Positions 1,458 to 11,589 of a stretch of 64,000 nt of DNA are shown one piece after another (positions within the stretch are counted from its first letter, which is position 1; the number at the start of each line of letters is the position of its first letter). The notes beneath the pieces were generated by a model. That model did not search any database. It saw only the letters and a program-made list of their open reading frames with translations, and was not told the DNA's origin. Source of the DNA: Alphaproteobacteria bacterium (GTDB taxonomy: Bacteria; Pseudomonadota; Alphaproteobacteria; Sphingomonadales; Kordiimonadaceae); contig JAJFIS010000041.1 in assembly GCA_021774735.1 (NCBI GenBank), forward strand, positions 91,844 through 155,843, read 5' to 3'. A program made the translations under genes and the position numbers.

Positions 1458-2774
1458 TTATTTTGCAAGGGCTTCAAGTTCTGGCAGATCACGTGGTCCG
1501 CTAAGTTCAGGATTATTTTGTTTGTCGAGCCGTAGGATGGAAAAGTGCATCCAAGCCAGAGCAATGCCGATGATGACCGTCAGCAGCATGAAGCAGCTGG
1601 TCCAAACACCGATCATATCATTCATGATGCCAAAGGTGATAGGCAGAACAAAACCGCCGAGGCCTCCGATGAGGCCGACAATACCACCAACTGAGCCAAC
1701 ATGGTCCGGATAGTAAACTGGAATATGCTTGTAAACCGCAGCCTTACCCAATGACATGAAGAATCCGAGGATGATCGTCAGAAAAACAAACATTTCAAGT
1801 GGGATCGTAATGTTAAACTCAACAGGGCCATCGATGCCAGCGACCGTATACTGCGTGGATGGATAGGACATGATGAATGTGCAGATCACACAGGCGATAA
1901 AGGTCCAATACATCACTCTGCGGGCACCGAACACGTCTGACAGATAGCCACCGAGTGCGCGGAAGATACTACCGGGCAGTGCATACATTGCTGCCAAGAC
2001 GCCTGCTGTTGTTAGCTCAAGGCCATAAGCGCCAACATAATAGCGTGGTAGCCACAATGCCAGAGCCACATAGGCACCAAAAACAAAGAAGTAATACAGA
2101 GAAAAGCGCCATACTTGGATGTTTCTCAGCGGCTCCATCTGTTCAGCAAAGCTGGCATGCTCGGCACCAGAGGCCTTGCGTTCCTTCAAAGCGGGATCAT
2201 CTTTAGCAAAGATGTAATAGAGAACGCCGGTCACAGCCAAGATGATGGCATAAACCTGTGCCACACCTTGCCAAGCACCACCCATGGCAATGAGCAGGAA
2301 TGGCGCACCAAAGTTGGTAATGGCCGCACCGACATTGCCCATCCCAAAAATACCAAGTGCTGTACCTTGGCGCTCTTTGGGGAACCATCTGGATACATAA
2401 GCAACCCCAACGGCAAAACTACCGCCCGCGAGACCGACACCAAGAGCTGCTACCAAGAACATCTCGTATGTATTGACCATTGTCAGCAAATAAGCGGCAA
2501 CTGCTGTAAGCAGCATCTGCACTGTATAAACGATCCGACCGCCATATTGGTCGGTCCAAATACCCAAGAACAACCGGCTAAGGGATCCGGTTAAAATTGG
2601 CGTTGCCACCAAGATACCAAATTGGGTGTCGCTTAAGCCTAGCTCAGCTTTAATTTTCATGCCGATAATGGAGAATATGGTCCAAACAGCAAAACAGACC
2701 GTGAAGGATAGCGTACTGACCGTTAGGGCCCGTGTTTGCTCACCTTTTGTTACATTTGCAACGTTCATCGTCAC
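1458..2774 (-). CDS. narK: MFS nitrate/nitrite transporter NarK/NasA family
   Basis: 438-aa ORF with MFS motif GIWTDQYGGR and nitrate-porter-like GMGNVGAA. The track start codon is GTG. ATG at 2766-2768 lies 6 nt after AGGAG and is the likelier start. Confidence 0.9.
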   Translation of the reverse strand: MTMNVANVTKGEQTRALTVSTLSFTVCFAVWTIFSIIGMKIKAELGLSDTQFGILVATPILTGSLSRLFLGIWTDQYGGRIVYTVQMLLTAVAAYLLTMVNTYEMFLVAALGVGLAGGSFAVGVAYVSRWFPKERQGTALGIFGMGNVGAAITNFGAPFLLIAMGGAWQGVAQVYAIILAVTGVLYYIFAKDDPALKERKASGAEHASFAEQMEPLRNIQVWRFSLYYFFVFGAYVALALWLPRYYVGAYGLELTTAGVLAAMYALPGSIFRALGGYLSDVFGARRVMYWTFIACVICTFIMSYPSTQYTVAGIDGPVEFNITIPLEMFVFLTIILGFFMSLGKAAVYKHIPVYYPDHVGSVGGIVGLIGGLGGFVLPITFGIMNDMIGVWTSCFMLLTVIIGIALAWMHFSILRLDKQNNPELSGPRDLPELEALAK

Positions 2775-2826
2775 CTCCTAGTGCTAAATTCTGATGAAAA
2801 CATGTACCCATGTGGCATGGAATTTC

Positions 2827-2840
2827 TTGACCTTGATCAA
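2827..2840. promoter_or_regulatory. FNR/Crp-family box TTGAC-CTTG-ATCAA in the divergent narK / regulator intergenic region
   Basis: Read directly from the sequence: 9/10 match to the TTGAT-N4-ATCAA consensus. The centre lies about 60 nt upstream of the narK start and about 100 nt upstream of the regulator ORF. Confidence 0.6.
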
Positions 2841-2933
2841 GTGTAGGGTTCATAACTAGATATGCAAAGAAAAAAAGGGCTAAATTAAACATGAAAAATC
2901 ATGCTATTCCCTTGAAATATCTATAGTTTTGCA

Positions 2934-4586
2934 TTGCTAAACGATGAAAAAGCGTCAATTTGTCACATGAGAAAGGCACCAATGGATTTTGCAGCCCCAA
3001 CTACTAATCCGGCTCAGGATATTCTCCTATCAATGGCAGAGGTTCTACACAGCCTGCAAAGGGAACGTGGGTGCGCTTCAATTTTCTTGGATAGCGAAGG
3101 AAAATATTTCACCAAGCGGCTGAATAAGCAAATAAACCGAACATCAAAATTGATAGCCAATCTATCCATCTTAATTAGTGACAGCGCTTCATTGAAAGAT
3201 TTGCCTGATTTTATTGAAAGCAGACTGAGCGCCCTCAATATTCGATTACAGTCCATAGGCAAATTGCGAGCGCAGGTCTTAAAAGACGATATCAAATATA
3301 CTAAGGCAATCAATGATTATACCTTCAGCCATAATATCCCGCTGTTGGATGATATGATTGAACTTGCCCAGCGTACTGATGAACATAATTCAGCACTTGT
3401 CAGCGCCTTTGCTAATTTCCTGCAATGGAAAGAGCGTTTGGGCCGTGAACGCGCCCTTGGTACCCGTGGTTTTTACAAATTCGCCTTCAAAAACCCTGAA
3501 TTTTGTGACCGCATCATAGCCTTAACCGCTGAGCAACAAACCTATTTGAACTCTTTTTTAACGATCGCATCCCCCTCTCAAATTGCTTTGGTTCGTGATA
3601 TTCTTGATGGTTCAGACATGAAAACCATAGCTGACTTCCACCTTAAGCTGGAAGCTGGAGACAACCTAGATGGCCATAAAGAATTCACCGCAGAATCCTG
3701 GTTCGATATTCTGACGAGGACTATGGACCAGCTTCATAACGCTGAGAAAAAACTGATCATGTCACTTGCTGGGGCTGCAACGCATGTTGGCAACCTCCAC
3801 AGCACGGATTTAGAATCAGGAGTTAAAGTCCAAAAGCCATTTTTAAAGTCCCTCGCGCTTTTTTCAAAATTAGAAGACACCGAACTTGATGACTTATTGA
3901 GCTTTGCTCAAATACGCCATTTTGAAAGTGGTAAAATCTTATTTCTGCAGGGTGAATCAATCCAGCGCATGTATGTTATTCTCGAAGGCTGGGTGAAAAT
4001 ATTCAACGGTACAGAAACCGGCGAAGAGACAGTGCTGCAAATGCTATCCACAGGCGAAACTCTACTCGATTCGGCGATTTTTCTCAATGCTGCTGCCCCA
4101 GTTAGCGCACAGCTGATTGAAGATGCAACGCTGCTTTCAATCCCTGCGCCGGTCATGCGGCAAAAAGTTAAGGACAATGGCAATCTCGCCATCAGCATGC
4201 TGAGCAATGTATCCCTGCGCTCACAGCGGCTGATCCATCAGATTGAGCAATCGCGGCTTAAATCTGCCAGAGAGCGGGTTGGTTGGTTCTTACTGCGACT
4301 GTATCTGAACCAAGCGAACCAAGAAAGTGAGATTTTTCTGCCATATGATAAATCGATCATTGCGTCATATCTTGACATGCGCCCTGAAACTTTTTCTCGC
4401 GCACTCAAAAAATTACGCAGCGATGGCTTCGTAATCTTAAAAGATCGAATTTCTATTCCCAAGGATAAATCACTTTGTGCCTTTTGCGATCAACATTTGG
4501 CCGGTACTTGTGACTTTGTTGGCACCCCCAACTGCTCTAACCCCAATATTGCTGATCTTGACTTAGTGGAGATACTTGATGCGTAA
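2934..4586 (+). CDS. NIT-domain / Crp-Fnr family fusion transcriptional regulator with Cys-rich C-terminal tail
   Basis: N-terminal half carries NIT hallmarks (LQRERGCASIFL, WKERLGRERALGTRGF, TAEQQTYLNSF). C-terminal half has a cNMP-binding-like barrel (GKILFLQGE..MYVILEGWVKI) and a Crp-type HTH with ETFSRAL. The tail reads CAFCDQHLAGTCDFVGTPNC. The track start is TTG; ATG at 2967 or 2982 (GAAAGG upstream) may be the real start. Confidence 0.8.
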   Translation: MLNDEKASICHMRKAPMDFAAPTTNPAQDILLSMAEVLHSLQRERGCASIFLDSEGKYFTKRLNKQINRTSKLIANLSILISDSASLKDLPDFIESRLSALNIRLQSIGKLRAQVLKDDIKYTKAINDYTFSHNIPLLDDMIELAQRTDEHNSALVSAFANFLQWKERLGRERALGTRGFYKFAFKNPEFCDRIIALTAEQQTYLNSFLTIASPSQIALVRDILDGSDMKTIADFHLKLEAGDNLDGHKEFTAESWFDILTRTMDQLHNAEKKLIMSLAGAATHVGNLHSTDLESGVKVQKPFLKSLALFSKLEDTELDDLLSFAQIRHFESGKILFLQGESIQRMYVILEGWVKIFNGTETGEETVLQMLSTGETLLDSAIFLNAAAPVSAQLIEDATLLSIPAPVMRQKVKDNGNLAISMLSNVSLRSQRLIHQIEQSRLKSARERVGWFLLRLYLNQANQESEIFLPYDKSIIASYLDMRPETFSRALKKLRSDGFVILKDRISIPKDKSLCAFCDQHLAGTCDFVGTPNCSNPNIADLDLVEILDA

Positions 4587-5025
4587 AATTTTATTACCGC
4601 CGTTGATTTTATTTGCTTGCCTTGGCGCGATGATTGCCCTGAAAATTTACGCCCCGATGGGGGTATGGCTGACGGGCCCACTGACCTATATTGGGGTCGC
4701 GCTGATGGTGGTCGGTGGCTATATTCCGGCGTGGGGTGTGCAAACTTTCAAGAAGGCAGAGACCAACCTGATGCCTTACAATGACCCCGATAGCATGGTA
4801 ACAGGCGGCCCTTTTCGCTTCTCGCGCAACCCCATGTATCTCGGCATGTTGATTCTGTTGATCGGCGTCGCTATTATTTTAGGCACAAAATCCAGCCTGA
4901 TCGTACCGCCTATCTTTTTCGCTATCATCAATTGGTACCATATCCCCTTTGAGGAAAGCCGCATGGCAGCCCACTTCGGCGATGGCTTTGAAGAGTATAA
5001 AAGCCGGGTACGGAGGTGGGTTTAA
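4579..5025 (+). CDS. Isoprenylcysteine carboxyl methyltransferase (ICMT)/PEMT-family membrane methyltransferase
   Basis: Motifs FRFSRNPMYLGMLILLIG and IPFEESRMAAHFGDGFEEYKSRV, plus 4 predicted TM segments. ATG at 4579 has GGAG 7 nt upstream and overlaps the regulator stop by 8 nt. Confidence 0.75.
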   Translation: MRKILLPPLILFACLGAMIALKIYAPMGVWLTGPLTYIGVALMVVGGYIPAWGVQTFKKAETNLMPYNDPDSMVTGGPFRFSRNPMYLGMLILLIGVAIILGTKSSLIVPPIFFAIINWYHIPFEESRMAAHFGDGFEEYKSRVRRWV

Positions 5026-5213: not shown

Positions 5214-5861
5214 ATGCTAAGCCAATCATTTGAACGAAGTAAGCATGTCTACCGTAATGATGAGTTCGTTGAACTGATAAAGGATGCGGTTAGATTTTTT
5301 AATGGCACTCCTGTTCATCGATTTACTCTGAATGAAAAATTTCTTGGGGCGGGTGTATATGCTCTATATTACACTGGAAAACATGAGCCATATAATGATT
5401 ATTCTAAATTAAATCGACTTTCATATGATTACCCAATCTATATAGGAAAAGCTGTTCCTAAAGGGTGGAGGCAATCACGAGTCTCTGATGGAGAATCCAA
5501 GCAGTCGAGCGAACTATATTCACGAATTAGGGAACATGCTCGTAATATTGAAAAAGTGGACGGCATTGACATATCAGATTTCTCATGTCGGTTCGTAATC
5601 TTTGAAGCGGATGGCTCAGATATGATTGGAGCAATAGAGGCTGCTTTAATTAAGCTTAATAAACCTCTATGGAATTCAGTAGTAGATGGATTTGGCAACC
5701 ATACTCCTGGAAAAGGGCGTTTTAACCAGGCCAAATCAGACTGGGATGTCTTGCATCGGGGACGAGAGTGGGCCGATAAATGTAATGGTATACCTAGCAA
5801 TAAAGCCGATATACTTGAAAAAGTCTCTAAACATTTAGCTATGTTTGGGGGGGAGATATGA
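5214..5861 (+). CDS. Eco29kI-family (GIY-YIG) type II restriction endonuclease
   Basis: 215 aa with a GIY-YIG-like core (GVYALYY ... PIYIGKA ... R..EH). The overall sequence resembles my recollection of R.Eco29kI. It is followed by a C5-MTase with an ATGA overlap. Confidence 0.75.
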   Translation: MLSQSFERSKHVYRNDEFVELIKDAVRFFNGTPVHRFTLNEKFLGAGVYALYYTGKHEPYNDYSKLNRLSYDYPIYIGKAVPKGWRQSRVSDGESKQSSELYSRIREHARNIEKVDGIDISDFSCRFVIFEADGSDMIGAIEAALIKLNKPLWNSVVDGFGNHTPGKGRFNQAKSDWDVLHRGREWADKCNGIPSNKADILEKVSKHLAMFGGEI

Positions 5862-7039
5862 GGTCGATTGAGCTTTTTTCTGGTGCAGGTGGATTAGCAA
5901 AGGGGCTAGAAATCTCTGGGTTTGAGCATGTAGCTTATGTTGAAAATAACCGTGATGCATGTATAACCCTGCGAAATAACTTTAATGCCAAAAAAGTTTT
6001 TGAAGGCGATATTAGAGAGTATGAATTTGATACTCTCTCAAATATTGATGTTATTGCTGGAGGTCCACCTTGTCAGCCTTTTTCATTAGGGGGGAAGCAC
6101 AAATCATCATCAGATGAACGTGATATGTTCCCTTTAGCAATAAAAGCTGTTCGATCATTACGCCCAAAAGCATTTATATTTGAGAATGTAAAAGGTCTAT
6201 TAAGGCCATCCTTTTCAGACTATTTTAAGTATATTTTACTACGCCTTCAATACCCCGATTTCAATTGCGAAAACAGTAATGACTGGTCAAAGAACTTTTC
6301 TCTCCTTCGCGAATTCTCTAGTAATTCTAGCACAACACCAGAATATAGAGTTCAGTTTCAATTGATGAACGCTGCTGATTACGGCGTCTCTCAAACTAGA
6401 GAACGTGTTATTATAGTTGGAGTTCGTTCTGATTTAAATTCTAGGTGGCTATATCCAGAGGGAAAGTATACCCAAGACCGTCTACTATGGGATCAGTATG
6501 TTTCTGGTGAGTACTGGGAAAAACATAAGATTAAAAAGGTACCTGAATATTCACATTCAAAACATTTTTTAAGGAAAATTGAGACCATTAAAAAAAAATA
6601 TGGCTTCATTCCACCACGTTCTCTACCTTGGAAAACCTTAAGAGATGTCTTGAGTAACGTACCTAATCCAAAAGCTATGCATCAAATTGGAGACCACCTT
6701 TTCCGTGCTGGTGCTAGAAGTTATCCGGGGCATACAGGAAGTATGTTCGATCAACCATCCAAAACAATTAAAGCCGGTGATCATGGTGTTCCGGGTGGTG
6801 AAAATATGATCCGATTTTCTGATGATTCAATCAGGTATTTAACAGTATATGAAGCCAAACTTGTTCAGAGTTTTCCAGCGTCATTTAAAATACATGGGGC
6901 GTGGGGAGAAGCTATGCGCCAAATAGGCAATGCTGTTCCAGTAACGATAGCCGAAGTTCTTGGCGCGGAACTAAAACGAGTATTATCTGATAACTCTAGT
7001 CAACAGACTAACCAAAAATACCTTATGAGATGCGCATAA
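5858..7039 (+). CDS. DNA (cytosine-5)-methyltransferase
   Basis: C5-MTase motifs are present: I (ELFSGAGG), IV (GGPPCQPFS), VI (ENVKGL), VIII (QTRERV) and X (QIGNAVP). Confidence 0.92.
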   Translation: MRSIELFSGAGGLAKGLEISGFEHVAYVENNRDACITLRNNFNAKKVFEGDIREYEFDTLSNIDVIAGGPPCQPFSLGGKHKSSSDERDMFPLAIKAVRSLRPKAFIFENVKGLLRPSFSDYFKYILLRLQYPDFNCENSNDWSKNFSLLREFSSNSSTTPEYRVQFQLMNAADYGVSQTRERVIIVGVRSDLNSRWLYPEGKYTQDRLLWDQYVSGEYWEKHKIKKVPEYSHSKHFLRKIETIKKKYGFIPPRSLPWKTLRDVLSNVPNPKAMHQIGDHLFRAGARSYPGHTGSMFDQPSKTIKAGDHGVPGGENMIRFSDDSIRYLTVYEAKLVQSFPASFKIHGAWGEAMRQIGNAVPVTIAEVLGAELKRVLSDNSSQQTNQKYLMRCA

Positions 7040-7145: not shown

Positions 7146-9078
<1,933 letters not shown>

Positions 9079-9154
9079 TGAAACATATAATTTAAGAGAT
9101 CTATATGTACGCCCGCACCCGATTATTGGCAAGAGATAGTAAGGGCCATCGCTA

Positions 9155-9223: not shown

Positions 9224-11452
9224 TTAGTGGGCACCATCTTTACTGAAAATATCATCAACACCACCAAGGAAAGATTTGATCATATCGCTAATTTTTTCAG
9301 AATTACCAGACAGCATTTGGCTAGAATTATAAACCGTATCAGCAGCTGATTTAGTCTGATTTGTACCGGCTGCAACGCTGGTGATATGCTGGCTAACATC
9401 TTGGGTGCCCTGTGCCGCATCTTGAACATTACGCGCAATTTCGTTGGTCGCCGCTTGTTGCTCCTCCACCGCAGATGCAACAGCCAGAGCAAGTTCAGCC
9501 GTTTTTTCCACCGCATCTTGAATGCTGCCCATCGCAGTCGCAGCTTCATGGGATTTTTGTTGAACCGACTGAATTTGTGTTGATATCTGCTCGGTTGCCT
9601 TCGCGGTTTGGCTAGCAAGGGATTTCACTTCTCCTGCCACAACGGCGAAGCCTTTACCAGCTTCACCCGCCCGCGCTGATTCTATAGTAGCATTTAAGGC
9701 GAGCAGGTTGGTCTGCTCGGCGATATCATTGATCAAATTAACCACTTCAGATATCGCCTGCGATGCTTGCTCAAGGTCCACCATGACTTCAGCGGTTTGC
9801 TTTGCTTGCCCCGCTGCTTCATTACTGGCTTCGGTTGAATGTTGAATTTGGCGACTAATTTCCAAAATTGAAGCACCAAGCTCTTCCGCCGCACTCGCCA
9901 CAGTTTGCACATTGGCGGTCGCCTCTTCCGCAGCTGCCGCAACACTGGCTGACTGGATGCCCGTTTGCTCTGACGTTTCTTGCAGAGCAACCGATGTGGA
10001 AGCAAGTTCGCTTGAAGCATCGGTCAAATTGCCAAGAGCTTGATTTGCATTAGTGTCAAAATCTTCTATGAGCGTCGTAAGCGAACTGGTTATCGCTTGA
10101 CGCTTTCCCTCGGCTTCACGTTCATCATTTCTTTTGCGCTCCGCCATTTCGGCCTCAGACCGCATGCGTTCTTCATCGGCACTTGCTTTTTCGGCTTCTG
10201 CTGCTCGTGCTTCTTCACTTAGGCGTAAGTTTTCTTGCGCATTCACCTTGAAAACATCAATGGCCTTAGCAATATCACCTACGTCATCACCACGATCAAC
10301 ATATGGTACTGACAGTTCTAATTTACCCTTCGCCAATTCAGCCATGACCGATACAATTTTTGTTAGCGGCGAAGAAACAGTCATTGACACAAAATACGCT
10401 CCCACTGTTAAAAGGGCTGTGAGTATTACGGCCATCCAGATTAGTTGGCTTACGAGCCCATCAGAAGGCTCTTGCACTTCACTAAGGTCAATTTCACCCA
10501 TCATAGCCCAAATTACACCTTTAAAATTGATCGACCCAAATGCGGAGAGAACCTCAATACCGCGGTAATCTTCAACGGTTAAAATCCCTGTTTTACCATC
10601 GAGGGCCGCTTTTGCACTTTCTGTATTGATTTTGGTTTTCAAAATAGTTGAGGTTTCGCTAAAGCGTGAATCTGATCGCATGAGGCCATCATGACCAACG
10701 AGATAGGTTTCACCGCTTTCTCCCATACCAACTGATTGTTGCATAATGCTATTTATTTTATCTATTGGCATTTGGAAGGAAAGCACCCCGATCATATTGC
10801 CATTTGCATCCATTACAGCCTGTGAAATAAAGCTTGCTGGCGCTCCTTTGCTGGGCTGATAGGGTGCAAAATCTACAAACTCTTGGCCACCGCGTGCGCT
10901 TAAGGTAGACCTAAAAATATTACCCAAATCGGAATCTCGCCACTGTCCCGTTTGAACATTAGTGGCAAAATCAGGCTCCTTAAAAACCGAATAAACCAGA
11001 TTACCTTTCAGATCGAATAAAAAGACATCATAGTAACCCCGTGTTTGCTGCAGGTTTCTGAACCAATTATGGTATGTTACATGTGCTTGTGTATATTCTG
11101 AGCCATCCCCGGCATTGGTTAGTTTTTCCATTTGAGGTGTCATATAAAGGCGCTGAATTTCTGATGTAGGATCACTACCCATCGCGTTCCACCCACCTAT
11201 GAACGCTGTTATAGCATCTGCAGTGAAAGGGTTTTTAGCGACAAGTTCAAGGTCTTGTTCAATCGATGCTAAATAAATTGATAATTCTGAAATTCGTGAT
11301 TGGTTAATAGCCTCAAGATTTCGATTTGCCGCTTCATCCAGAGCTGACTCAGCGGAAAATTTGCTAAATAAAGTTAAGCTTAAGCTTACGGTTAACAGAA
11401 ACACTACCACGAGAGCAGGTAATTTAATTGCGAGTTTAATATTAGAAAACAT
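9224..11452 (-). CDS. Methyl-accepting chemotaxis protein with periplasmic dCache-like sensor, HAMP and MA domains
   Basis: 742 aa. It has an N-terminal TM, a roughly 300-aa periplasmic domain, a second TM, and the highly conserved signalling hairpin ([35 protein letters not shown]). Confidence 0.92.
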
Positions 11453-11575: not shown

Positions 11576-11589
11576 TTGATCTATATCAA
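11576..11589. promoter_or_regulatory. Perfect FNR-type box TTGAT-CTAT-ATCAA upstream of the chemoreceptor gene
   Basis: Read directly from the sequence. The centre lies about 130 nt upstream of the MCP start codon, in an AT-rich intergenic region. Confidence 0.5.

Follow-up and report, generated by a model that had tools for sequence, protein, structure and literature searches.

In enterobacteria, the role of nitrate-responsive regulator of the nar genes is filled by NarXL. To our knowledge NarR has no recognisable sensor, and nitrate sensing in alphaproteobacteria without NarXL is therefore still a question. NarR senses nitrate/nitrite and takes the place of NarXL in alphaproteobacteria (PMC8139620). 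The window analysed here, i.e. the whole stretch of 64 kb, holds near its beginning a gene divergent from narK, whose predicted product joins a nitrate/nitrite-sensing (NIT) domain to a Crp/Fnr module and ends in a tail with four cysteines. Could this protein read nitrate for the nar genes, and does its tail provide a second input?

Domain architecture of the regulator

The regulator lies in an open frame that reaches upstream to a TTG at position 2934, giving an ORF of 550 amino acids (2934–4586, + strand). The true start is probably the ATG at 2982 (MDFAAP...), since an AAAGG Shine-Dalgarno sequence is located 5 nt upstream, the alignments with homologues begin at that methionine and P0001, the 534-aa protein called here, matches the 550-aa ORF at 100% identity over 97% of that ORF. 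The coding sequence would then span 2982–4586 (+ strand), for 534 amino acids plus stop. A sequence-only reading of this DNA had described a single three-part ORF of 550 aa, with a NIT segment, a cNMP-binding-like barrel followed by a Crp-type helix-turn-helix (HTH), and a Cys tail. All of these were recovered, and the motifs quoted in that reading (LQRERGCASIFL, WKERLGRERALGTRGF, ETFSRAL and CAFCDQHLAGTCDFVGTPNC) were each found in the ORF; it is the length that probably has to be revised. The Pfam matches, all above thresholds, place NIT at residues 36–275, cNMP_binding at 328–414 and HTH_Crp_2 at 447–516 (550-aa numbering), and the AF2 model of the protein has an overall pLDDT of 88.

The NIT domain (3039–3758, + strand), the significance of which had been a prerequisite for the earlier interpretation of the N-terminal half, was matched by Pfam PF08376 with an E of 8e-36 and 125 bits for a cut-off of 24.9, covering 235 of the 239 model positions. 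It is cytoplasmic, devoid of an N-terminal hydrophobic segment, and modeled as all-helical with a pLDDT above 90; NIT-family domains are double four-helix bundles. Nitrate is bound through G-x-x-R in NarX/NarQ, and through Q-x-x-R plus G-x-x-R in NasR (PMC8199190). The corresponding residues of the NIT-family nitrate site (Q/G-x-x-R per half, NasR/NarX-like) are present in the regulator as Q26-R-E-R29 and G154-R-E-R157 (534-aa numbering), and in an alignment of 77 sequences each of the motif residues Q26, R29, G154 and R157 is either invariant or conserved in over 90%. Klebsiella oxytoca NasR (NIT-ANTAR, PDB 4AKK) is likewise a one-component protein with a cytoplasmic NIT domain carrying both motifs; its PDB sequence matched the regulator with an E of 2e-10, and the two motifs align to LQCERG and AGQERALG of NasR. 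The outputs differ: NasR has an RNA-binding ANTAR domain and acts by antitermination on the assimilatory nas genes, whereas the regulator has a DNA-binding Crp/Fnr module and lies beside respiratory nar genes. A Pfam scan of the regulator returned no ANTAR match and its C-terminal half is Crp/Fnr, so that it is not a NasR-type antiterminator. The linker that joins NIT to the beta-barrel (3759–3914, + strand) includes the sole internal low-confidence stretch of the AF2 model (pLDDT <50 at residues 271–275), with short helices across residues 277–306.

The Crp/Fnr module starts with a cNMP-binding-like beta-barrel followed by a long dimerisation helix (3915–4175, + strand; Pfam cNMP_binding 1e-15, 57.9 bits for a cut-off of 27.5) and continues with a Crp-type winged HTH (4272–4481, + strand; Pfam HTH_Crp_2 E 1e-10, 41.5 bits for a cut-off of 27). 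A Foldseek search with the AF2 model confirmed the Crp/Fnr fold, with 3fx3, DNR, GlxR, CRP and FNR at TM(target) values of 0.7–0.79. In the recognition helix RPETFSRALKK, residues E469, S472 and R473 are invariant among the 77 aligned sequences; this E-x-x-S-R helix and a conserved TTGAT-N4-ATCAA-type box, whose pairing is predicted, are FNR/Dnr specificity features. No cysteine is found in the Crp module between the NIT domain and the tail, so that the N-terminal Cys cluster by which E. coli-type FNR binds [4Fe-4S], C-x2-C-x5-C with a central Cys in addition, is lacking, and the NCBIfam Fnr model gave 40.4 bits for a cut-off of 228. The best NCBIfam model for the module is FtrB, below its equivalog cut-offs (NF006901, 121.8 bits vs 211; NF050815, 86.7 vs 300). 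The closest relatives of the module are SPOA0323 of Ruegeria pomeroyi (PDB 3FX3/3H3Z, 9e-34) and DNR of Pseudomonas aeruginosa (PDB 3DKW, E 2e-26, 28% identity). These two proteins and the FtrB/FixK group also use FNR-type boxes in the control of N-oxide or microaerobic respiration, but lack both the NIT domain and the Cys tail.

The stop codon of the regulator is overlapped by a gene for a PEMT/ICMT-family membrane methyltransferase (4576–5025, + strand), possibly co-transcribed with it. This position is not kept in relatives, where moaA and/or moeA, two genes of Moco biosynthesis, are often found downstream of the regulator.

Linkage to the nar genes and the intergenic box

The first gene of the divergent operon, narK1 (1458–2768, - strand), encodes a NarK-family MFS nitrate/nitrite transporter matched by Pfam MFS_1 and by NCBIfam NarK (TIGR00886, E 1.6e-70, 238 bits, under the 311.7-bit cut-off of that model); its real start is the ATG at 2768, behind AGGAGG. 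It is followed by narK2, coding for a second NarK-type transporter (1–1388, - strand), which runs off the start of the window and which in relatives is followed by narGHJI. As to how common the fusion is, a question left by the sequence-only reading, the three-domain architecture occurs in at least 120 protein clusters, and public databases list it, under generic annotation, for well over a hundred species. No characterised NIT-Crp/Fnr regulator was known to that reading, and a literature search turned up no description of one. Reference genomes gave 155 candidate loci, of which 80 could be obtained at full length; they come from Kordiimonas, Emcibacter, Robiginitomaculum, Parvularculaceae and Hyphomicrobiales MAGs. 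The orthologue of Kordiimonas lipolytica is P0007. The regulator is upstream of and opposite to narK1-narK2-narGH in 71 loci, directly adjacent in 66, and nar genes are absent from the 8 kb upstream in loci L038/L089 and L040. Separate NIT and Crp genes in locus L090, considered as Rosetta-stone evidence, were discarded: within an A-rich run a +2 frameshift links one ORF to the other, which makes this a sequencing error or else a frameshifted copy or pseudogene.

The palindrome TTGACCTTGATCAA, a predicted FNR/Dnr-type box matching TTGA-N6-TCAA, is located exactly at 2827–2840, where a TTGAC-N4-ATCAA box had been reported earlier, with narK1 divergent. Its centre and the narK1 ATG are separated by 65.5 bp, and the distance from the centre to the regulator ATG is 148.5 bp; the box is upstream of both start codons. 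A perfect TTGA-N6-TCAA is present in 58/66 orthologous narK1-regulator intergenic regions (8/66 are without a perfect box), and the density of such boxes is 2.95 per kb in the intergenic regions vs 0.075 per kb in the remainder of these loci, a 39-fold enrichment. The count within the 64-kb window alone (three matches vs 1.6 expected) is within chance, and the case for the box thus rests on its conservation across species. A putative narK1 -10 region, TACATGTT (2799–2806, - strand), lies 27–34 nt from the box centre. In 59 loci, the narK side, and that side alone, shows a consensus cATAtT at offsets 29–34, and offset 30 is A in 46/59; this spacing is the one expected for a box centred at -41.5, and the predicted narK1 transcription start is at about 2792 (- strand). 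A sigma-70 scan of positions 2700–3050 found no -35/-10 pair, which fits an activator-dependent promoter and is no evidence in itself. Taken together, the coupling of nitrate/nitrite sensing to FNR-box recognition, as put forward from the sequence, gains comparative support.

NarR of Paracoccus pantotrophus/denitrificans, the activator of narKGHJI, is similarly a Crp/Fnr protein encoded divergently from narK with an FNR-type box in between, and it has the E-x-x-S-R recognition helix and the same presumed job; it differs in having neither a NIT domain nor a Cys cluster. Plasmid matches of the Crp module were discarded as a source of Paracoccus NarR, the best of them adjoining hmp/nor, nirK/ric, nnrS or nap and not nar; NarR-position genes were reached through a NarK search. 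The NarR-position proteins of Paracoccus alcaliphilus and Thioclava, without NIT or tail, share 26–27% identity with the Crp module, below the 33–35% of DNR-like proteins. On this sequence comparison, the regulator is a positional and putative functional analogue of NarR, and not its orthologue.

The cysteine tail and alternative readings

The tail C499-x2-C502-D503-x6-C510-x7-C518 (4476–4535, + strand), a probable metal or Fe-S site, directly follows the DNA-binding wing and is modeled with a pLDDT of about 87–88. Conservation of its four cysteines in orthologues, which the earlier reading left to be verified, is strong: the C-x2-C-x7-C-x7-C spacing is kept in 116/120 homologues, and the four cysteines as well as D503 are invariant in the 77-sequence alignment. 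The view of the tail as a peculiarity of the NIT fusion did not hold, since it defines a wider Crp/Fnr clade in which many proteins lack NIT; among the best 150 clusters at 50% identity, about 100 carry the tail. In a rough NJ tree, unsupported and with many "solo" entries that are short-contig fragments, NIT-bearing and NIT-less sequences interleave. Most NIT-less tail-bearing proteins are devoid of N-terminal cysteines, and their FtrB scores (75–131 bits) are also under the cut-off. They adjoin narK-narGH, ccoNOQP-ccoGHIS, or nrdDG with a hemN-like gene, while a second NIT paralogue adjoins hemN and ccoNO. The nar, cco, hemN and nrdDG genes are classical neighbourhoods of the FNR regulon, and the presence of NIT-less members beside nar, ccoNOQP and nrdDG points to the tail as an O2/redox-sensing metal centre.

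In Bacillus Fnr, a [4Fe-4S] cluster is bound through C-terminal cysteines (PMC3520743; PMC12937710). The proteins of B. subtilis and B. cereus resemble the regulator in being Crp/Fnr members with a four-Cys C-terminal extension after the HTH, in which three cysteines plus an aspartate bind an O2-sensing [4Fe-4S] cluster needed for DNA binding (PMC3520743). The cysteines are however spaced C-x4-C-x2-C-x3/4-C vs C-x2-C-x7-C-x7-C in the regulator, and Bacillus Fnr is a Firmicute protein without NIT domain; the two tails are likened by position and Cys count and not by homology. Attempts to connect the tail with Bacillus Fnr, or with a curated family, were set aside, no NCBIfam model or solved structure joining them. 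NCBIfam has no model matching the tail-bearing proteins, nor the sister clade with C-x2-C-S-type tails. The spacing x2, x7, x7 fits no established Fe-S motif, and the search of PDB sequences with a tail profile gave nothing significant, the best match being the Zn-binding B-box of Midline-1 (LCQFCDQD, E 4.5). Judging from the invariant residues, the tail most likely holds a metal centre; that this is an O2/redox-sensing Fe-S centre is possible, at somewhat less than an even chance.

The regulator could instead sense nitrate only, with NIT as its sole input and the cysteines binding Zn or stabilising the C-terminal wing without sensing anything, any O2 control of nar being left to a FixLJ/FixK-type cascade or some other regulator. 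We regard this as rather unlikely. Four invariant cysteines with a C-x2-C at the start suit Zn as well as Fe-S, and the sole PDB match of the tail profile, although not significant, is to a Zn-binding protein. Zn ribbons pair C-x2-C with C-x2-C, and two features of the tail are atypical of them, the C-P at its end and an invariant Asp that follows the second Cys. Regarding the neighbourhoods, FtrB/FixK regulators, the nearest curated family, adjoin cco and hemN genes, yet are not known to carry a cofactor and are under the control of FixLJ, so that O2 sensing is not proven by neighbourhood alone. Against a purely structural role, most of the NIT-less tail-bearing proteins found beside cco, nrdDG, hemN and nar have no other candidate sensor residues, and a cluster of the Fe-S type at the C-terminus is already known from Bacillus Fnr. 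Very improbable in our view is a tail acting as a thiol/disulfide or NO-responsive switch, by which nitrate would be integrated with nitrosative or oxidative stress and not with oxygen as such: DNR, a haem-dependent NO sensor, is among the closest solved relatives and the nearest tail-less relatives adjoin hmp, nor, nirK and nnrS, but four invariant cysteines at fixed spacing suggest metal ligation over a single disulfide. Crp/Fnr members with Cys oxidation do exist, such as FixK2 with Cys183 (PMC12937710).

Another possibility concerns the occupant of the narK box, which might be used mainly by a different FNR-like protein, either a NIT-less tail-bearing paralogue or a canonical FnrL, with the NIT-Crp protein acting elsewhere, forming heterodimers or competing as a nitrate-dependent modulator or anti-activator. 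TTGA-N6-TCAA also precedes targets of the NIT-less relatives (narK in L083, cco in L084, nap in L088), the recognition helices are near-identical, and both regulator types are found on one contig (L084 and L057); such NIT-less paralogues, sharing box type and helix in the same genome, could therefore occupy the box. We nevertheless consider this improbable, because the NIT-Crp gene is strictly nar-linked across alphaproteobacterial lineages labelled Kordiimonadales, Emcibacteraceae, Parvularculaceae, Robiginitomaculum/Henriciella and Hyphomicrobiales, its own helix has the invariant E-x-x-S-R needed for the half-site, and inspection of the box-aligned intergenic regions revealed no second conserved operator.

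Proposed role of the regulator and its significance

Our preferred reading, which we consider likely, is that the protein regulates nar in response to nitrate/nitrite and does so through the intergenic box. The regulator would be a cytoplasmic one-component transcription factor whose NIT domain binds nitrate and/or nitrite brought in by NarK, the state of the domain being passed through the roughly 40-residue linker to a Crp/Fnr-type dimer. At the divergent narK1 promoter, this dimer would bind the TTGAY-N4-RTCAA box, whose centre lies at about -41.5, and turn on narK1-narK2-narGHJI as a class II activator, doing the work of Paracoccus NarR from the same genomic position, and that of enterobacterial NarXL. 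For the tail, here written C-x2-C-D-x6-C-x7-C(P), we favour an Fe-S cluster labile to O2/NO, of the kind seen in Bacillus Fnr, in which case DNA binding would also depend on anoxia and a single polypeptide could work as an AND gate for "no oxygen" and "nitrate present". The nar promoters of E. coli, with their FNR site at -41.5, follow the same logic of anoxia AND nitrate, but there the signals are split between FNR, with its N-terminal [4Fe-4S] cluster, and the two-component systems NarXL/NarQP, which sense in the periplasm, whereas the regulator may read one or both. Inferred in this scheme are ligand binding, O2 sensing, the nature of the metal centre and the sign of the regulation, activation as opposed to repression. 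As a whole, a nitrate/nitrite-responsive class II nar activator with a tail that preferably holds an O2/NO-labile Fe-S cluster stands, in our estimate, slightly above an even chance. More tentative, and in our opinion rather doubtful, is its most specific form: a two-input AND gate in which NIT reads nitrate/nitrite and a novel proteobacterial C-terminal Fe-S tail (C-x2-C-D-x6-C-x7-C-P) reads O2, the tail being shared with a large, undescribed stand-alone "C-terminal-cluster FNR" clade that replaces FnrL/FixK beside cco, hemN and nrdDG.

A recognised nitrate-binding module joined directly to an FNR-type activator at the nar promoter would be a testable molecular answer to the question of nitrate sensing in a wide range of Alphaproteobacteria from the sea and from sediments, and the regulator would make a compact, one-protein nitrate biosensor that works in the cytoplasm and has a defined operator. 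The Cys tail marks a sizeable uncurated Crp/Fnr clade, which may represent a new class of O2/redox sensors governing the genes for cbb3 oxidase, anaerobic ribonucleotide reductase and nitrate reductase. Should the AND gate be true, it would show the way in which many alphaproteobacteria lacking NarXL sense nitrate, and would mean that O2 sensing by a C-terminal cluster arose a second time, independently, outside Firmicutes. The NIT-Crp family is thus a widespread and uncharacterised family of marine alphaproteobacteria which, on the evidence of its fusion and conserved tail, may answer nitrate and possibly also oxygen.

Domain architecture and family of the regulator

The sequence-only reading had described a 550-aa ORF in which a NIT domain is fused to a Crp/Fnr module; it lies at 2934–4586 (+ strand, counted from TTG). 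This fusion was recovered with Pfam, where NIT (residues 36–275 of the 550-aa frame, E 8e-36), cNMP_binding (328–414, 1e-15) and HTH_Crp_2 (447–516, 1e-10) all score well above their gathering scores. The frame thus exists as described, but ATG 2982 is a likelier start codon than TTG 2934, because an AAAGG Shine-Dalgarno lies 5 nt upstream of it, homologue alignments start there and the product in public assemblies (P0001), 100% identical to the regulator from this codon, is 534 aa long. The window contains no further ORF resembling Crp or NIT. A sequence search of the PDB divides the protein into the same two halves as Pfam: NasR (4akk, 2e-10) is the only match to the N-terminal half, and the C-terminal half matches SPOA0323 (3fx3/3h3z, 9e-34) and Pseudomonas aeruginosa DNR (2e-26), FNR being far weaker (about 1e-9). 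The AlphaFold2 model, built with 77 family members as input (mean pLDDT 88), comprises an all-helical NIT domain, a linker containing one disordered stretch (271–275), a beta-barrel, a long helix, a winged HTH and a confidently placed tail; the Crp/Fnr fold was confirmed by Foldseek.

NarX and NarQ bind nitrate via G-x-x-R, and NasR retains both arginines with one Gly swapped for Gln (PMC8199190). The regulator possesses Q26-R-E-R29 and G154-R-E-R157 (534-aa numbering), which align with LQCERG and AGQERALG of NasR and whose residues are invariant or >90% conserved across the family. Neither a signal peptide nor a membrane segment was detected in the protein, so nitrate sensing would take place in the cytoplasm, as it does in NasR. 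A cytoplasmic sensor fits with the two paired NarK transporters, which could make a positive loop via imported nitrate.

The NIT-Crp fusion is a family rather than an accident. Among 5.8 billion proteins searched, 185 matched, and all of the 120 listed share the three-domain architecture, with 39–53% identity to the query, P0001 excepted. Scanning one genome per species (185,579 species) yielded 155 candidate loci, the best 80 of which span NIT to tail; in most, the match covers about 500 or more of the 534 residues, and six are cut shorter, mostly by contig ends. These 80 come from Kordiimonas, Pseudokordiimonas, Emcibacter(aceae), Parvularculaceae, Robiginitomaculum and Henriciella, and from MAGs labelled Hyphomicrobiales, Methyloligella, Rhodomicrobium and others. 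In another locus (L090, 6138–7711) there seem to be two genes, a NIT-only ORF and a Crp ORF with the tail; a natural split was rejected, as a frameshift in an A-rich run indicates a pseudogene or an assembly error. Full-text literature searches found no published description of a NIT-Crp regulator; the architecture is nevertheless already in databases across many species, labelled by NCBI only as "nitrate- and nitrite sensing domain-containing protein" or "cyclic nucleotide-binding domain-containing protein".

Putative operator and gene neighbourhood

As first proposed, the gene is divergent from narK-narK: narK1 starts at ATG 2768 behind AGGAGG, and the second narK runs off the start of the window. 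In 71 loci, tblastn with marker proteins put the regulator upstream of narK1-narK2-narG-narH and in the opposite orientation, and in 66 of these the two are direct neighbours; the complete narK-narK-narGHJI operon is visible in K. lipolytica. Downstream, many relatives have moaA and/or moeA (molybdenum cofactor synthesis), found nowhere in the window; their place is taken by a PEMT-like gene and a restriction-modification pair, an Eco29kI-family endonuclease gene (5214–5861, +) overlapped by a C5 DNA methyltransferase gene (5858–7039, +). An ordinary TPP riboswitch (Rfam RF00059, 66 bits; 8967–9084, -) lies directly upstream of thiC (7146–8972, -).

The FNR-type box noted in the narK1-regulator intergenic region, TTGACCTTGATCAA (2827–2840), recurs in the orthologous loci. 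A perfect TTGA-N6-TCAA, with consensus TTGA[C/T]-N4-[A/G]TCAA, occurs in 58/66 simple intergenic regions, usually once, at a density of 2.95 per kb versus 0.075 per kb across the remaining 960 kb of these loci (39-fold enrichment). For an activator site centred at -41.5, the -10 hexamer is expected at offsets 29–34. When the regions were aligned on the box, a cATAtT signal appeared at these very offsets on the narK side (A at offset 30 in 46/59 loci) and was absent on the regulator side; no -35/-10 pair was detectable at 2700–3050 of the window. In the recognition helix (RPETFSR), E, S and R are invariant across the family. Together, synteny, box enrichment, the -10-like signal and these residues support, without proving, class II activation of narK-narGHJI by the regulator. 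It probably controls the nar operon in response to nitrate/nitrite through the conserved box.

Within 2805–2821, on the narK1 side of the box, a palindrome CCATGTGGCATGG (2808–2820), flagged by a scan only as a terminator-like stem, overlaps the predicted -10/transcription-start region; TACCCAT (2805–2811) fits TACYYMT, the enterobacterial NarL heptamer. A second perfect box, TTGATCTATATCAA (11576–11589), is found some 130 bp upstream of a gene for a 742-aa methyl-accepting chemotaxis protein (9224–11452, -); this box may be part of the same regulon or a chance occurrence, since the window holds 3 boxes versus 1.6 expected. An Emcibacteraceae MAG (L030; 11092–12660, +, and neighbours) has two NIT-Crp paralogues separated by 1.5 kb, one divergent from nar and the other adjoining hemN, usp and ccoN-ccoO, and NIT-bearing members may therefore control microaerobic respiration genes too. 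L089 (the locus of homologue P0077), one of two loci whose upstream 8 kb contain no nar genes, has a hybrid histidine kinase and three single-domain response regulators before the NIT-Crp gene and a complete Moco cluster (moaA, moaC-moaB, moeA, moaD, moaE, mobA) after it.

The C-terminal cysteine tail

The C-x2-C-x7-C-x7-C spacing is kept in 116/120 homologues listed, one exception being a truncated fragment; C499, C502, D503, C510 and C518 are invariant and P519 is >90% conserved. The tail is not tied to NIT: 240–280 aa proteins without NIT share an ALCxFCDxxxAxxCxxxxxxxCP ending. In a search of 1.84 billion cluster representatives with the Crp module, the top 150 comprised 41–42 proteins with NIT and tail, 63 with the tail only (some fragments), 43 with neither and 3 with NIT and a damaged tail. 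The closest tail-less relatives (about 35% identity) adjoin hmp/nor, nirK, nnrS or nap.

On long contigs, genuine tail proteins lacking NIT are divergent from narK-narK-narGH (P0138, P0142) or from ccoNOQP-ccoGHIS (P0144, on a Robiginitomaculum contig that also carries a NIT-Crp/nar locus), or adjoin nrdD-nrdG (P0148, P0151; in one case also a hemN-like gene). Such surroundings are classical for O2-responsive FNR/FnrL/FixK regulators, and most of these proteins lack N-terminal Cys. FixK/FtrB-type proteins have similar neighbourhoods and no cofactor; FtrB is the nearest curated family, and the regulator scores far below its cut-off. We know of no established Fe-S motif that the tail spacing resembles, and its profile had no significant match in the PDB, the sole, non-significant one being a Zn-binding B-box. 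In Bacillus Fnr, a C-terminal extension, C(x4)C(x2)C(x3/4)C, holds an O2-sensing [4Fe-4S] cluster ligated by three Cys and one Asp (PMC3520743; PMC12937710). Of the redox, metal or Fe-S inputs first suggested, the neighbourhoods, the missing N-terminal Cys and this precedent favour an Fe-S O2/redox sensor. The spacing, the B-box match and the cofactor-less FixK/FtrB-type proteins are real caveats to this reading. That the tail is such a centre we rate somewhat short of probable; it would make the regulator a single-chain AND gate.

A sister clade of about 250-aa Crp/Fnr proteins (P0155, P0227, P0235, P0237, P0239, P0249, P0256, P0259), matching no curated family, ends in a different Cys-rich tail, e.g. 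YTCVSCSS..C and DFSCAMCSSDYPC, reminiscent of the Bacillus C-x2-C-x4-C arrangement.

Relation to known regulators

In Paracoccus, induction by nitrate/nitrite depends on NarR, a Crp/Fnr protein without a cluster whose gene is divergent from narK; its sensing mechanism is not known, and it is said to take the place of NarXL in alphaproteobacteria (PMC8139620). The regulator is an analogue of NarR in logic and genomic position but not its orthologue: in Paracoccus alcaliphilus and Thioclava nitratireducens, the proteins encoded at the NarR position share 26–27% identity with the Crp module and, unlike the regulator, lack both NIT and tail. NasR has the same NIT sensor but an ANTAR output, FNR and Dnr belong to the same DNA-binding class but the N-terminal cluster is not found in the regulator, and the idea of a C-terminal cluster may be common to the regulator and Bacillus Fnr.

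The original observation was confirmed and its interpretation supported; to be corrected are the start codon and, for the tail, its occurrence in relatives without NIT and the Bacillus precedent, and the architecture is already present in databases. The regulator is best filed as an uncharacterised one-component Crp/Fnr variant with NIT input, within an uncurated C-terminal-Cys4 Crp/Fnr clade. Its parts are familiar; their combination is a directly testable answer to nitrate sensing in NarXL-less alphaproteobacteria, and it exposes a sizeable unstudied clade of regulators.
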